Notes: generated by a model from the letters alone, not told the origin. DNA of 64,000 nt from Deltaproteobacteria bacterium (GCA_016218105.1 JACRET010000032.1:17175-81174); one strand, 5' to 3'; numbered from the stretch's first letter, positions 22,788-43,221 are shown. Program-made: numbers and translations.

Positions 22788-22813
22788 TAAAGAATTCACA
22801 TAAATGCCGATAA
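22788..22813 (+). promoter_or_regulatory. Sigma-28 promoter-like element upstream of the glycosylation operon
   Basis: TAAA-N14-GCCGATAA has a perfect -10 box but a spacer one nt shorter than consensus. It is preceded by an A-tract (AAAAAACCCAAAAAAAC) similar to the one upstream of the 47592 promoter. Confidence 0.55.
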
Positions 22814-22822
22814 GAATATTAA

Positions 22823-22838
22823 TGGCACGCATGTTGCA
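22823..22838 (+). promoter_or_regulatory. Sigma-54 promoter upstream of pseB
   Basis: TGGCAC-GCATG-TTGCA is a perfect -24/-12 consensus, 34 nt upstream of the pseB ATG. Confidence 0.65.
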
Positions 22839-22871
22839 TTTGTACTTATCAAAACGGGCAAGGAGACGTAT

Positions 22872-39312: not shown

Positions 39313-39317
39313 TAACC

Positions 39318-41333
39318 ATGCACAGACTTCATCTGTATACGCTTTTTCATTGCAACCTTGCGTTCTCGATGATAGAGAGGGCCTCTTTCCCCTCTATTGT
39401 CCAGAGATGCTATTGGCCTGTCTTAAGGCTTGCGGAAGATGATTTTCCGGTTGCGATCGAGATGCCCGCATGGACATTAAAAGAGGTAAACTCAATCGAT
39501 CCGTCTTTTGTGCTCAAGCTTAAAGAGCTTTGGAGGGCGGGGAAGTGCGAGTTTGTCGGCTCAGGGTATTCGCAGGCCATATTCCCGCTTATACCAGCCG
39601 AGGTCAACAGGTGGAATCTGGAGCTGGGGAACAAGCATTACCAGGAACTCCTTGGAAAAAAGCCCGAGGTAGCGCTCGTCAATGAGCAGACTTTTTCCCG
39701 CGGGCTCGTTGACCTGTATAAAAAAGCAGGCTATAAAACCATCATAATGGACTGGAACAACTCGCATAAATATAATAATTACCCCAAGGAATATGTCTAT
39801 TTTCCGCAAAAAGCCGTCGGGAACATTAAGGACATTGACGTTATCTGGAGCCATTCTATCGCCTTTCAGAAGTTTCAGAGATGCGTTCACGGGAGCGTCA
39901 CTGAGGAGGAATATTTCGACTTCCTTAATAGCCATTACTCCCCGACAGAGGACAGGGCCTTTGTCCTCTATACCAACGACGCCGAGGTCTTTGATTTCAG
40001 GCCTGGCGCTGAGGAGATTCGTACCGGCGAGTGGGAGCGGCTTAAGGCCCTGCTTGCAAAGATAAAGGCGGATGAGAGATTTTTACTGGTAACGCCAAAT
40101 GACGTCGCGGGGGCTTTTAAAGGCAGGCACAAGGCGTTTAACAAGATAAGCCTTGAATCTCCTGAGACGCCGATCGTATGCAAAAAGCAGGAGAAATACA
40201 ACCCGACCCGTTGGGCGGTTGCCGGCAGGGACAGCGTCCATGTCAATACGGAGTGCTACAAGGTATACAGGAACATCAAAGCTCTTTTAGATGGCGGCGG
40301 CCTTCCTGAGCATACGGCGGACGAGTTTAAGGAGACTATATGCGACCTGTGGGGAAGCGACTTCAGATCGAACACGATAGACGAAAAATTCATATACTTC
40401 CAGAATAAGGCCGGCTGGCTGAAAATGGAAACCGAAAGGCTGCTGAAAGGAACGCCTTGCGGGGCAGGCGCGCCGGGGTCTTTTCAATACCCGGGAGACA
40501 AGGCGGATGATACTGTAATTAACGGAGCCTCCGCGAACGCCAGATTGACAAAGACCGACAGCTCGGTAAAGATAATAACGGATACGGTTGAGGCGGAGTT
40601 TCTCACGCACAAAGGGTTTGCCCTTAAATCCCTTGCCTTCCCGGGAGTTTTCGATAAGCCGCTCCTTGGCACACTGGCCCACGGCTATTACGATGACATA
40701 AGGCTTGGGGCCGATTTCTTCAGCGGGCATATCATCCACGTTTCAAAAGATGGCAAAAAGACGACCGATCTTAAAGGCGCTGAAATGCAGATAGAGGAAG
40801 GTGCCGATAATCTCATCATAAAGGTTCATACCTCTCTTGATATAGGCACGCTTACCAAGATGTATGATGTCTCCAGGACAAAACCCTCGATTTCCGTTAC
40901 TTACAGGCTTAAGGTCAATGGACTCGTCGCCTCATCCCTGCGTCTTGGGATATTTACCTTTATGCCTTCATCGTTCGATAAAGACACGCTCTGGTTTGAA
41001 ACGGTAAACGGCGGCGCGGCGCCGGAGAGGTTCTCTCTTAAAGGCCGCGCGCTGTCACACGACGAGCCGGTCAGTCAGAGCGTTTCCGCCTCAAGCTGCC
41101 TCGGCGCAACCGAAGGGTGGGTTAAGATAGGGGATAAGGACAAGTCTATAAAGATATCTACGGATAAATCCAGGCTCTACTCGGTTCCGATGCTTAAGTT
41201 TATGGAGCTTAAGGAAGAGGATTCGTTCTTTTTAAGGCTTTATCATTCCGTTGGAGAGGTAGACGACACGGCGTGGTGGGTCTGGAGGGGCGTAAACGAG
41301 ATAACATTCGATATCAGCGCCAATAAGGAATAG
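39318..41333 (+). CDS. GH57-like (glycoside hydrolase/deacetylase beta/alpha-barrel) protein with a large C-terminal domain of unknown function
   Basis: 671 aa. The N-terminal ~330 aa resemble family-57 glycoside hydrolases: FHCNLAFS, EFVGSGYSQAIFPLIP, VALVNEQTF (candidate nucleophile Glu) and LYTNDAEVFDF (candidate acid/base Asp). Assignment is by eye only. Confidence 0.5.
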   Translation: MHRLHLYTLFHCNLAFSMIERASFPSIVQRCYWPVLRLAEDDFPVAIEMPAWTLKEVNSIDPSFVLKLKELWRAGKCEFVGSGYSQAIFPLIPAEVNRWNLELGNKHYQELLGKKPEVALVNEQTFSRGLVDLYKKAGYKTIIMDWNNSHKYNNYPKEYVYFPQKAVGNIKDIDVIWSHSIAFQKFQRCVHGSVTEEEYFDFLNSHYSPTEDRAFVLYTNDAEVFDFRPGAEEIRTGEWERLKALLAKIKADERFLLVTPNDVAGAFKGRHKAFNKISLESPETPIVCKKQEKYNPTRWAVAGRDSVHVNTECYKVYRNIKALLDGGGLPEHTADEFKETICDLWGSDFRSNTIDEKFIYFQNKAGWLKMETERLLKGTPCGAGAPGSFQYPGDKADDTVINGASANARLTKTDSSVKIITDTVEAEFLTHKGFALKSLAFPGVFDKPLLGTLAHGYYDDIRLGADFFSGHIIHVSKDGKKTTDLKGAEMQIEEGADNLIIKVHTSLDIGTLTKMYDVSRTKPSISVTYRLKVNGLVASSLRLGIFTFMPSSFDKDTLWFETVNGGAAPERFSLKGRALSHDEPVSQSVSASSCLGATEGWVKIGDKDKSIKISTDKSRLYSVPMLKFMELKEEDSFFLRLYHSVGEVDDTAWWVWRGVNEITFDISANKE

Positions 41334-41334
41334 T

Positions 41335-43221
41335 ATGTCGATTTTTGATAAAAACCTTTTGAGCATAGGTCTCAAAGACAAGGCTCTCTCCGACAGGCTG
41401 CGGTCTCTCGACAAATGGGTTGAGACGGAGGAGGCCAAAAACAGGGAGCATACCTTCAAGTATGGCGGGATTTATTTTCACAGCCGTTACGACCCGGCAA
41501 AAGAGGCCTCTGTGCAGGCCGAGGAGATAGCGTCAAAAAAAACTGATTGGGTGCTGCTGTTCGGGCTCGGGTGCGGGTACCTGCTTAAGGCCCTTCTGGA
41601 AAAAGGCCAGAAAAAGGTCATGGTCTTTGAGCCTTCTGAGGAGATACTCGCCGGGGTGCTCCGCAATATTGACCTCTCGGAAGAGCTTTCGCTGGACGGT
41701 GTATTTCTCCTTACGGACATGGTTGCGTTCATAAGCAATCTACGGTCCTCCGCCGAGGGGTTTGACAACCTTTTGTGCTTCAGCCCCACCCCTTACAGGT
41801 TGACATTTCCCGCCGAGCTTAGAGATTTCACGAACAGGGTGAATAACGCGCACACGACGAGCAAGGTCGGGATAAAGACAGACCTTGTGTCAAGGCTTGA
41901 CTGGATAGAGAACTATCTGGAGAACGTCAGGCATTTTCCGGAAACTCCGCTCGTGGACGATCTGCGGGACAGGTTCAAGGGCAAGCCTATGGTGATAGTC
42001 GGGGCAGGGCCTTCATTAAAGAAGAACGCGCATCTTTTGCGCGAGTTCAAGGGAAAGGCCGTTATTATGGCCGCGGTGACGGCCTACAAGCCGCTGCTCA
42101 AGTTCGGCGTTATACCGGATTTTGTGATAGCCTCGGAGAGGGTGGACCTGCCTGAATATTTTACATCAGGGGATGAGGACAGGCAGACAAGGCTTATCCT
42201 TGCGGAGGTGTCCCACCCGAAGATGTTTGAAAGAGAAGTCCTGGGAAAACTGGTATACTTCTCCCCGTCGATATCTTTCAGCCGCGAGCATGCCAGGCTC
42301 TGGGGCAGCTCATACTTCCCGAATATGGGCGGCAGCGTGACTACAGCCGCTCTTGATATGGGGATCATGTTGGGTTGCAGCCCGATAGTCTTTATAGGTC
42401 AGGACCTCTGTTTCGGGGACAACGAGACCCATGTCGGAGGAGGCGTGTACGTTGCACAGAACGTCAGGATAGACAAGGAGAAGGGGCTCATCACGATAGA
42501 GGACGAGTACATAAACGACAAGCAGACGTATGTTTATGATCTGCAGTGGCTCAAGGGCCTTAATGGCGCTCAGGTGCCCAGCAAATACGACTGGACTACC
42601 TTCCATCAGTGGTTTGAAGCCTATATGCTCAGCCTTAGAAGGTCAGGCTCCCCTGTCAAGGTGATAAATGCCACTGAAGGCGGCGCATATATAGAGGGGA
42701 TGGAGCATTCCACGCTTAAAGAGGTCCTTGCCGGATATATCAGGGACGGTCTTGACATAGACAAGATAGTGAGAGAGGCTAAAGAGGCGCGTACGAAGAC
42801 GGATTATCCGGCCCTGATCGAATCGTTTACGCAGATGAAAAAGAGCCTTGGCGTTATCCGGAAGACCGCGCAAGGGATATTCAAAGAGGTGAGGGGCGCA
42901 AGGACGGAGCTTAAGAGAAATGGGCTTACCCTGGGACTTAAAAAGCATGCCGACAGGATAAAGGCTCTTGAGGAGGACGTCTTCAGGGAATCCGAAAACG
43001 CCCGCTTCATCTGGGAGGCGCTCATTGAAAATACTTATAAGCTGAAGCAGTACCTTCGCGATGAGGGTGAGACGTCAGCGACCGGATTTGAGAAAGACCT
43101 TGATGCCATCGAGGCCTCGTACAAGAGGATCGATGAGATCTGCCAGAGATTTGGGCCGAAGCTTGAGGGGGCCGCGTCTGTTCTGGGGAGCCGTGAGAGC
43201 TTGACAAAAAAGGCGTTGTAG
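41335..43221 (+). CDS. maf: Motility-associated factor (Maf; DUF115/MptE-like) putative flagellin nonulosonate glycosyltransferase
   Basis: 628 aa. MVIVGAGPSLKKN, IPDFVIASERVD and GGSVTTAALDMGIMLGCSPIVFIGQDLCF form the typical Maf core. Starts 1 nt after the preceding gene ends. Confidence 0.8.
   Translation: MSIFDKNLLSIGLKDKALSDRLRSLDKWVETEEAKNREHTFKYGGIYFHSRYDPAKEASVQAEEIASKKTDWVLLFGLGCGYLLKALLEKGQKKVMVFEPSEEILAGVLRNIDLSEELSLDGVFLLTDMVAFISNLRSSAEGFDNLLCFSPTPYRLTFPAELRDFTNRVNNAHTTSKVGIKTDLVSRLDWIENYLENVRHFPETPLVDDLRDRFKGKPMVIVGAGPSLKKNAHLLREFKGKAVIMAAVTAYKPLLKFGVIPDFVIASERVDLPEYFTSGDEDRQTRLILAEVSHPKMFEREVLGKLVYFSPSISFSREHARLWGSSYFPNMGGSVTTAALDMGIMLGCSPIVFIGQDLCFGDNETHVGGGVYVAQNVRIDKEKGLITIEDEYINDKQTYVYDLQWLKGLNGAQVPSKYDWTTFHQWFEAYMLSLRRSGSPVKVINATEGGAYIEGMEHSTLKEVLAGYIRDGLDIDKIVREAKEARTKTDYPALIESFTQMKKSLGVIRKTAQGIFKEVRGARTELKRNGLTLGLKKHADRIKALEEDVFRESENARFIWEALIENTYKLKQYLRDEGETSATGFEKDLDAIEASYKRIDEICQRFGPKLEGAASVLGSRESLTKKAL

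Follow-up and report, generated by a model that had tools for sequence, protein, structure and literature searches.

The window analysed here, 64,000 nt from one strand of Deltaproteobacteria bacterium (GCA_016218105.1, JACRET010000032.1:17175-81174), carries between fliW and its flagellin gene an uninterrupted plus-strand series of 18 open reading frames (ORFs). The series occupies 22872-43221 and ends in a gene for a Maf-family flagellin glycosyltransferase. By its position in the flagellar cluster beside fliC, its Maf protein, and its genes for nonulosonic acid (NulO) synthesis and CMP activation, this block fits the Maf-type flagellin glycosylation islands, the class to which a sequence-only reading of the DNA had already assigned it. 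We hold with moderate confidence that the island makes a CMP-activated sugar of the pseudaminic acid (Pse) type, bearing a substituent specified by an exchangeable gene cassette, and that this sugar is attached to flagellin.

Gene content and organisation of the island

Genes were assigned with Pfam, NCBIfam (using the TIGR equivalog cut-offs) and searches against PDB structures. The island, its upstream boundary genes (the same neighbours in relatives) and its presumed target are arranged as follows.

21860-22087, plus strand: csrA (Pfam CsrA, 9.6e-26), upstream boundary
22084-22536, plus strand: fliW (Pfam FliW, 1.2e-33), upstream boundary
22788-22813, plus strand: sigma-28-like box, TAAA-N14-GCCGATAA; the pattern has 3 matches in the window against 0.06 expected
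22823-22838, plus strand: perfect sigma-54 box, TGGCAC-N5-TTGCA, 33 nt 5′ of the pseB ATG
22872-23888, plus strand: PseB, UDP-GlcNAc 4,6-dehydratase (inverting); TIGR03589, 522.5 bits, cut-off 407.75
23845-25083, plus strand: PseC, aminotransferase giving UDP-4-amino-4,6-dideoxy-L-AltNAc; TIGR03588, 498.2 bits, cut-off 423.5
25113-25295, plus strand: zinc-ribbon protein of 60 amino acids (aa) with four Cys (CKRC...CPDC; CxxC...CxxC), between pseC and the next gene
25322-26359, plus strand: Gfo/Idh/MocA oxidoreductase 1, accessory and missing from some relatives
26360-27403, plus strand: NulO synthase of the NeuB/PseI family; Pfam NeuB, 8e-85, plus a SAF domain
27394-28179, plus strand: CMP-sugar synthetase (CTP_transf_3); Pfam, 9.1e-32
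28206-29519, plus strand: class-III aminotransferase, like glutamate-1-semialdehyde (GSA) aminomutase; Pfam and NCBIfam
29544-30557, plus strand: Gfo/Idh/MocA oxidoreductase 2, sugar-dehydrogenase-like; top PDB matches 3q2k and 3q2i
30542-31543, plus strand: divergent PseG-like UDP-sugar hydrolase; TIGR03590, 104 bits, cut-off 153.55
31543-32457, plus strand: S-adenosylmethionine (SAM) methyltransferase MT1, a frame gene that travels with the PseG-like gene
32454-33716, plus strand: methyltransferase MT2, 420 aa, an unassigned N-terminal 190 aa followed by a class-I methyltransferase domain; start of the type-A cassette
33718-34812, plus strand: Zn-dependent dehydrogenase 1 of the medium-chain dehydrogenase/reductase (MDR) class; Pfam and NCBIfam
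34842-35537, plus strand: fructose-6-phosphate aldolase (FSA)/TalC-type transaldolase; TIGR00875, 258.5 bits, cut-off 245.95
35518-36561, plus strand: Zn-dependent MDR polyol/sugar dehydrogenase 2; weak Glu_dehyd_C match
36552-37778, plus strand: ATP-grasp carboxylate-amine ligase of the L-amino-acid-ligase type; Pfam LAL_C2, ATP-grasp_3 and ATPgrasp_N
37789-39312, plus strand: B12-binding radical SAM enzyme, probable methyltransferase; database gene call of 501 aa
39318-41333, plus strand: GH57-like protein of the GH57/GH38 superfamily, 671 aa; Pfam PF03065, 60.7 bits, cut-off 21.2
41335-43221, plus strand: Maf-family flagellin nonulosonic-acid glycosyltransferase, 628 aa; Pfam MptE-like PF01973, 4.5e-37, 127.9 bits, cut-off 34.6
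43302-43895, plus strand: DUF8042/TP0873_N protein, 197 aa
43920-43946, plus strand: sigma-28 promoter of the flagellin gene
44066-44896, plus strand: flagellin, 276 aa, D0/D1 domains only, 20.7% Ser+Thr, the presumed acceptor

Seventeen of the 18 block ORFs encode proteins of 231-671 aa. The remaining one, for the zinc-ribbon protein, is kept at the same position with 42-69% identity in 14 relatives and is therefore taken as a real gene. The count is 18 and not the 20 of the sequence-only reading. The architecture that it described otherwise stands. The plus-strand run is unbroken from pseB to the end of maf, and the neighbouring genes overlap or lie no more than 30 nt apart, as claimed: all 17 junctions measure -44 to +29 nt, many of them overlaps, and every junction that it listed was exact. 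It had seen no internal terminator, and terminator-like sites are indeed not enriched in the block (17 against 20.5 expected from shuffles); the few on the plus strand are weak and intragenic, and the terminator scan found no plus-strand site between genes. A scan of the block interior for sigma-54 and sigma-28 consensus sequences likewise found none, and sigma-70-like matches in the region number 16 against a shuffle expectation of 15.6. Given this spacing and the lack of recognisable internal signals, the simplest reading is again the one proposed there, a single transcription unit driven from sigma-54 and sigma-28. The resemblance of its codon style to that of the surrounding flagellar genes is also borne out by the composition of block and flanks (GC 0.528 versus 0.518; GC at third codon positions 0.656 versus 0.635; correlation of relative synonymous codon usage, RSCU, r = 0.985).

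Both boxes with which the unit had been said to begin lie in the 335-nt spacer upstream of the block. The predicted sigma-54 promoter has GG at -24, GC at -12 and canonical spacing, and stands upstream of a gene. All 18 relatives compared keep its box 5′ of pseB, 32-57 nt before the start codon in 16 of them and 140 nt before it in L027 (L024 is likewise not among the 16). A full sigma-28 box is present in 5 of the 18, and CCGATA, which resembles a sigma-28 -10 element, occurs just 5′ of the sigma-54 box in 7. From these frequencies sigma-54 appears to be the conserved driver and sigma-28 a lineage-specific addition. All three sigma-28 pattern matches of the window lie on the plus strand in flagellar contexts, before pseB, before fliC and before a 66-aa ORF that follows fliS. 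The only other perfect sigma-54 box of the window (13130-13145) is 46 nt 5′ of flgF and heads flgF-flgG-flgA-flgH-flgI-flgJ. This second box indicates a sigma-54-driven middle flagellar class in the organism. The best explanation of the promoter sequences is that the island is predominantly read from a sigma-54 promoter of the same type as that of the rod/ring operon, with the sigma-28 box in addition. As one study states in its title, Maf acts before chaperone binding and export (PMC4065374); sigma-54 control of the sugar genes, ahead of a sigma-28-driven flagellin, would fit glycosylation by Maf before export.

PseB and PseC, the latter with a GTG start and the ribosome-binding site AAGGAG in front of it, exceed their cut-offs. 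The sequence-only reading gave about five genes to the canonical Pse route, which stands for these two, whereas the PseG-, PseI- and PseF-like genes are divergent. Besides the PseG-like protein, the synthase falls short of both equivalog cut-offs (NeuB, 355.4 against 399.65; PseI, 318.9 against 340.25), and the CMP-sugar synthetase scores 29.9 bits with the PseF model, whose cut-off is 205.7. Homologues of the PseG-like protein with 24-31% identity stand where canonical Pse clusters of many phyla have PseG. A role for it as a glycosyltransferase partnering the GH57-like protein was considered and not adopted, given these remote homologues and a relative (L020) that keeps the PseG-like gene without the GH57-like one. 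No GNAT, hexapeptide or other acetyltransferase family that could supply PseH was found among the 18 block ORFs, and unannotated gaps are at most 29 nt long.

The two PDB matches of Gfo/Idh/MocA oxidoreductase 2 are enzymes that we take to be WlbA UDP-GlcNAcA (nucleotide-sugar) 3-dehydrogenases. The PDB relatives of the class-III aminotransferase include aminoglycoside C-6′ aminotransferases as well as GSA aminomutases. A cytidylyltransferase and a class-III aminotransferase, with or without a Gfo-type gene, recur together in distant non-flagellar Pse-type clusters (L034, L041, L049, L052, L056, L063, L069, L070, L072 and L085), and the same pair occurs in the O-antigen loci of Legionella pneumophila Sg6/Sg12 (PMC3694923). 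We found no biochemical assignment for this recurring set.

In addition to its MptE-like match, the Maf protein matches the NCBIfam PseD domain (3.2e-38, 131.8 bits, under the full-length cut-off), Maf_flag10_N just under its cut-off (6.9e-5, 22.9 against 23.5) and the Maf structure 5mu5 (1e-4). The order downstream of it is DUF8042-fliC-flaG-fliD-fliS. The flagellin gene starts 845 nt past the end of maf, close to the 850 nt of the sequence-only reading, and is the sole flagellin gene in the window, FlgL giving a weak match only; the intervening stretch, which that reading had passed over, holds the DUF8042 gene and a sigma-28 promoter. Throughout the clade the DUF8042 gene separates maf from fliC, and the minimal island of L020 is no exception. 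The DUF8042 protein carries a weak TP0873_N (Treponema) signature and has only 21 homologues in a collection of 5.8 billion proteins. Its AlphaFold2 (AF2) model (pLDDT 89.7) combines a β-rich N-terminal domain with a four-helix bundle, and comparison with the PDB gave no significant match, only generic four-helix bundles, with FliS at E ~1. The protein may be an accessory factor associated with flagellin or Maf.

Conserved frame and exchanged cassettes

The closest homologues of the island (54-90% identity) come from metagenome-assembled genomes (MAGs) of 'Deltaproteobacteria'/Thermodesulfobacteriota, mostly from groundwater. A tblastn matrix over the loci of the relatives shows more than 20 species-level MAGs with the frame FlgK-FlgL-CsrA-FliW-[PseB-PseC-Znr-(Gfo1)-NeuB-CMPt-AT3-Gfo2-PseGl-MT1-cassette-GH57-Maf]-DUF8042-FliC-FlaG-FliD, where Znr is the zinc-ribbon protein, CMPt the CMP-sugar synthetase, AT3 the class-III aminotransferase and PseGl the PseG-like protein. 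The block frame is kept between fliW and fliC. Conservation of the block genes equals that of the flagellar genes on either side, and they are as tightly packed in the relatives as in the window. The best explanation of these comparisons is a chromosomal island that has been vertically inherited in an uncultured groundwater lineage of 'Deltaproteobacteria'/Thermodesulfobacteriota. A recent foreign origin, already doubted by the sequence-only reading, was rejected on the native composition and the synteny kept across the species-level relatives.

One relative, L020, has a minimal island (L020:6652-13775) of PseB-PseC-Zn-ribbon-cytidylyltransferase-PseG-like-Maf-DUF8042-FliC. It is without NeuB, the aminotransferase/Gfo pair, a cassette and the GH57-like gene, which means either that its synthase must be encoded at another site or that the island is in decay.

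Between MT1 and the GH57-like gene, island content varies among relatives, and at least five cassette types can be distinguished. The short-chain dehydrogenase/reductase (SDR) and thiamine diphosphate-dependent (TPP) enzymes named below take the place of window genes in some of them.

Type A, MT2-ZnADH-FSA-ZnADH-ATPgrasp-B12rSAM (ZnADH, the Zn-dependent MDR dehydrogenases; B12rSAM, the B12-binding radical SAM enzyme): the window, L001/L008, L006, L015, L016, L027, L028 and L091
Type B, MT-SDR-ATPgrasp-KduI (MT, methyltransferase): L002/L007, L009, L011, L014, L018 and L030
Type C, MT-[Methyltransf_21]-TPP enzyme-SDR-ATPgrasp: L004 and L022
Type D, sulfotransferase-MT-Methyltransf_21-FSA-SDR-ATPgrasp: L024
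Type E, ATP-grasp, radical SAM/SPASM and a nucleotide-sugar set: L025
Type F, no cassette and no GH57-like gene: L020

About 12 further contigs carry orthologues of both the radical SAM and the GH57-like gene and were counted as type A. FSA/TalC is the C-C bond-forming enzyme of this type, and the Glu_dehyd_C match of the second Zn-dependent dehydrogenase, weak in the window, is not weak in the L091 orthologue. No type-A cassette was present in a cultured organism among the matches seen. Type-A genes diverge in step with the frame genes out to the distant L027 and L091, so this type is old in the lineage.

The ATP-grasp ligase, whose best solved relative is the L-amino acid ligase 3vot (1.3e-17), tracks cassette chemistry and not species. 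The window protein is 30% identical to its type-B counterparts, against 62-88% for frame genes. The type-C ligases share 55% with that of a TPP-SDR locus from another lineage (L090), and the type-B ligases 44% with that of a KduI locus (L088). By contrast, the GH57-like protein (51-68% identity) and the aminotransferase (66-87%) track the frame. Because relatives keep the frame and swap the cassette, each lineage would display a different substituent.

The GH57-like protein

The PF03065 match covers only residues 21-270 of the GH57-like protein; no NCBIfam model applies to it, and an exact-sequence look-up of the window protein returned no record. Its residues E123 and D221 align with the catalytic Glu nucleophile (E123) and Asp acid/base (D214) of the Thermococcus litoralis 4-α-glucanotransferase (1K1W) and are invariant in 42 homologues. 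For its AF2 model (pLDDT 90.4), the top GH57 match by Foldseek E-value is 1k1x (1e-26), while global superposition is better on GH38 mannosidases (TMq 0.64-0.67). With both the T. litoralis enzyme (1K1W/1K1X) and the GH38 α-mannosidases, it shares a (β/α)7-barrel, a helical linker, a C-terminal β-sandwich, a similar length and the positions of the catalytic Glu and Asp. It differs from them in sequence (~12% identity) and in its context, which is that of nonulosonic-acid tailoring and not of glycogen or starch.

Five distant homologues (L086-L090; 38-46% identity) were examined at their loci, where the gene lies at ~8001-10300; they belong to other lineages, including Omnitrophota and Patescibacteria. 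In L086, L088, L089 and L090 the gene directly follows a module of ATP-grasp (L-amino-acid-ligase type), SDR, TPP or transketolase-like and methyltransferase genes, and in L087 it is preceded, at a distance of a few kb, by ATP-grasp, split TPP and NeuB genes. On its 3′ side stand flippase or flippase/Wzy genes (L086, L088), an ABC transporter (L090), a methyltransferase (L087) or an uncharacterised gene (L089). None of the five loci has a flagellin gene, and several also hold PseG-like, MT1-like, NeuB or AT3 homologues. These loci suggest that the GH57-like gene is part of a portable sugar-tailoring module. A stray housekeeping glycogen enzyme was rejected: the gene is 1 nt from maf, its site is conserved in the clade, and it follows an ATP-grasp module in all five distant loci. 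This context, ATP-grasp/NulO-type glycan loci in five of five, also argues against α-glucan activity. The GH57-like enzyme is best explained as a constant, putatively intact catalytic partner of the ATP-grasp module. Among the papers searched, none linked hydrolase family 57, flagellin and glycosylation.

A wider interpretation, with the balance somewhat against it, would join these observations. The set of PseG-like protein, methyltransferase, C-C-forming enzyme, reductase, ATP-grasp and GH57-like protein may constitute a previously unrecognised, horizontally portable NulO-tailoring system that is plugged into flagellin (Maf) or polysaccharide (Wzx/Wzy/ABC) routes across distant phyla. The GH57/GH38-fold enzyme, with its intact dyad, would act on the constant part of the sugar in a step that is not amylolytic, and in the window flagellin would bear a new acyl-pseudaminic acid, aldolase-derived and O- and C-methylated. 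If so, this step would be a new function for the GH57/GH38 superfamily.

Precedents, proposed product and competing readings

The Maf-dependent pseudaminic-acid glycosylation of Campylobacter, Helicobacter and Aeromonas caviae shares with the window PseB and PseC above their cut-offs, a NeuB-family synthase, a CMP-sugar synthetase, a PseG-like protein and a Maf (MptE-like) protein near flagellin. The window block differs from that type in having no PseH, PseG-, PseI- and PseF-like genes under their cut-offs, and 11 extra genes, all in one sigma-54-headed unit.

The sequence-only reading knew of no described set that would account for the rest of the genes. This holds in part only, for some of them have a precedent in sfmABCDE of Shewanella oneidensis, which are required for flagellin modification and whose products are a NeuB-domain protein, a TPP enzyme, an SDR, a SAM-methyltransferase and an ATP-grasp protein (PMC3765264). 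The likeness, by domain architecture only, lies in the ATP-grasp ligase, a ~400-aa SAM methyltransferase and the NeuB-domain protein, and the study describes a NulO modification with a methylated extra moiety and a sigma-28 promoter of the same TAAAG-N14-GCCG.TAA layout. The TPP-SDR-MT-ATP-grasp set of sfm is present in the type-C relatives (L004, L022). The window differs in using an FSA aldolase and two Zn-dependent dehydrogenases for the TPP enzyme and SDR and in adding the B12-radical SAM enzyme; a GH57-like gene is not described in the available part of the Shewanella paper (PMC3765264). Likened by product only, Treponema denticola has a small, D0/D1-only flagellin bearing a Pse-configured NulO with a methylated polyhydroxy-acyl group. 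Its glycan is given as an N-acyl NulO with a methoxy-trihydroxy-hexanoyl chain (PMC13439194), by analogy the kind of product that the aldolase, dehydrogenase, methyltransferase and ATP-grasp set of the window might be expected to make.

Islands of about 20 kb and 20 genes near flagellin are already a described category, for example in Geobacillus (18-30 kb, 16-23 coding sequences (CDS), also without PseH, GC lower by 7 to 15%; PMC5109656), and the window belongs to it by position, Maf and Pse genes. Described for the Geobacillus and Clostridium islands (PMC5109656, PMC13317340) are 18-30 kb and 16-23 CDS inside the flagellar locus, Pse genes and Maf, a variable region with methyltransferases, and a PseH that is often missing, all of which the window shares. 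Those islands are compositionally foreign, with GC 7 to 15% lower, whereas the window island is native. Word searches of the Geobacillus paper found no ATP-grasp, aldolase, semialdehyde, oxidoreductase or glycosyl hydrolase, although 'MocA' occurs in it twice, so that a Gfo/Idh/MocA-family gene may be described there (PMC5109656); those of the Clostridium paper found no ATP-grasp, aldolase, semialdehyde, Gfo or radical SAM (PMC13317340). The window island differs from this category in its native composition, its sigma-54 head, the cassette of aldolase, Zn-dependent dehydrogenases and B12-radical SAM enzyme, and the constant GH57-like and DUF8042 partners.

Our proposal for the product builds on the identity of PseB and PseC, the families of the other enzymes, the position of the block, the conservation of its promoter and the structure of its cassettes. 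On the curated models, PseB and PseC would turn UDP-GlcNAc into the 4-amino-6-deoxy-L-AltNAc intermediate. Because the block has no PseH acetyltransferase, the amine of this intermediate is probably not simply acetylated. By family and synteny, the PseG-like hydrolase, the NeuB-family synthase and the cytidylyltransferase would then complete a Pse-type NulO and activate it with CMP. By analogy, a Gfo-type dehydrogenase and the class-III aminotransferase may oxidise and then transaminate the sugar, perhaps adding another amino group; a literature search for a triamino nonulosonic acid found nothing. MT2, the first Zn-dependent dehydrogenase, FSA/TalC, the second dehydrogenase and the B12-radical SAM enzyme would make and methylate a small polyhydroxy acid, which the ATP-grasp ligase would couple to a free amine of the sugar. 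Judged by its family, Maf would then place the completed sugar on Ser/Thr of the flagellin, which has D0/D1 domains only, ahead of export.

Many bacteria cannot assemble their filament without flagellin glycans, which also shape recognition by hosts and phages; most of what is known of their chemical diversity comes from a few pathogens. On our proposal, the locus would show how such diversity can be encoded, by a fixed Pse-type frame and a drop-in cassette in which the C-C-forming enzyme and the ATP-grasp ligase change together, with at least five versions within one uncultured clade. It also gives candidates for unassigned steps of Shewanella- and Treponema-type glycans, such as attachment of the extra methylated moiety, and it draws attention to a large uncharacterised branch of the GH57/GH38 superfamily, with more than 1000 homologues, whose ties are to NulO tailoring and not to starch metabolism.

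Several points weigh against this proposal. We infer every step after PseC, and likewise that the block is one operon, which we take from gene spacing and the absence of recognisable signals. With the synthase, the PseG-like protein and the cytidylyltransferase all under their equivalog cut-offs, the final stereochemistry of the sugar is not certain, and a PseH gene could lie in another part of the genome. The type-A cassette has no obvious aldehyde dehydrogenase, so that an MDR dehydrogenase would have to form the acid by acting on a hemiacetal, in the manner of archaeal glucose dehydrogenases. The proposal gives the GH57-like enzyme no role. In the Shewanella study, the flagellin carries a 274-Da NulO and a 236-264-Da O-methylated moiety that needs sfmABCDE; the extra moiety is easily lost in the ion source and the 274-Da part acts as a free amine (PMC3765264), data that, by analogy, fit an O-linked group better than an amide.

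This last behaviour favours the main rival, which is improbable without being far-fetched: the cassette would branch or extend the sugar skeleton instead of making a separate acid. A keto-sugar (the PseB product or a Gfo-oxidised NulO or CMP-NulO) would gain a C2/C3 unit from the aldolase in the window, the TPP (ThDP) enzyme in type C or the transketolase-like enzyme in L086 and L089, and would then be reduced and methylated, with the ATP-grasp enzyme adding an amino acid or an ester. Every cassette does have a C-C-forming enzyme followed by a reductase as its variable core (FSA and alcohol dehydrogenase, TPP enzyme and SDR, transketolase-like enzyme and SDR), and the closest solved relatives of the ATP-grasp protein are L-amino-acid ligases. 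The pairing of a TPP enzyme with a reductase resembles the logic of YerE/YerF, the TPP enzyme and reductase of branched-sugar (yersiniose) synthesis. Against branching, the KduI-type cassettes (type B and L088) point to free keto-deoxy sugar acids, KduI and KduD belonging to the 2-keto-3-deoxygluconate (KDG) route. The ATP-grasp sequence also co-varies with the cassette, as expected if it recognises the cassette product, and the N-acyl chain of the T. denticola glycan fits the free-acid route (PMC13439194).

We give about the same low weight to a block split by internal promoters into a core sugar unit and a unit for tailoring and transfer, only part of which would be in the flagellar regulon. 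Cassette swapping does mark the block as modular, and Shewanella maf, next to sfmA-E, is not co-transcribed with them (PMC3765264). The sigma-70-like matches that could serve such promoters occur no more often than in shuffled sequence, however, and the tight junctions, equally tight in relatives, speak for one unit, as do the missing plus-strand intergenic terminators and internal sigma-54 or sigma-28 consensus.

It is quite unlikely that the sugar mainly serves another surface structure (lipopolysaccharide, capsule or general O-glycosylation) and that the adjacency to flagellin is incidental. A module of PseG-like, MT1, ATP-grasp and GH57-like genes does adjoin genes for a flippase, Wzy or an ABC transporter in loci without flagellin from Omnitrophota, Patescibacteria and further metagenomic contigs. 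In the clade of the window, however, the last gene of the block encodes Maf and neither a flippase nor a polymerase, more than 20 genomes have the block between fliW and fliC, its promoters are of flagellar type, and its ORFs include no membrane transporter or lipid-carrier glycosyltransferase. Least credible of all is a recent horizontal acquisition, which the GC deviation of -7 to -15% in Geobacillus islands (PMC5109656) and the cassettes clearly exchanged between lineages (ATP-grasp identities) might suggest, but against which stand the GC and RSCU values shared with the flanks and the joint divergence of type-A and frame genes out to L027 and L091.

Some further features of the window lie outside the island. 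An Rfam scan of the whole window at gathering thresholds found no RNA family. The protein in the FlgJ position (17483-18289) has a rod-binding domain with Peptidase_M23 and not a muramidase domain. The third sigma-28 box (47592-47619) precedes the 66-aa ORF at 47655-47855, after fliS and a FliT-like gene; this ORF may encode a FlgM-like anti-sigma factor. A response regulator gene comes next, and relatives continue with an HD-GYP-type response regulator and a PilZ gene. The 5′ leader of the flagellin gene (44025-44059) contains a 5-bp hairpin with an AGGA loop (CGGCA-AGGA-TGCCG, 44025-44038) and a GGA-containing Shine-Dalgarno sequence, ACGGAGGG. In this it is similar to the Bacillus hag leader with its two CsrA sites, and the csrA-fliW pair that precedes the island is in keeping with such an arrangement.

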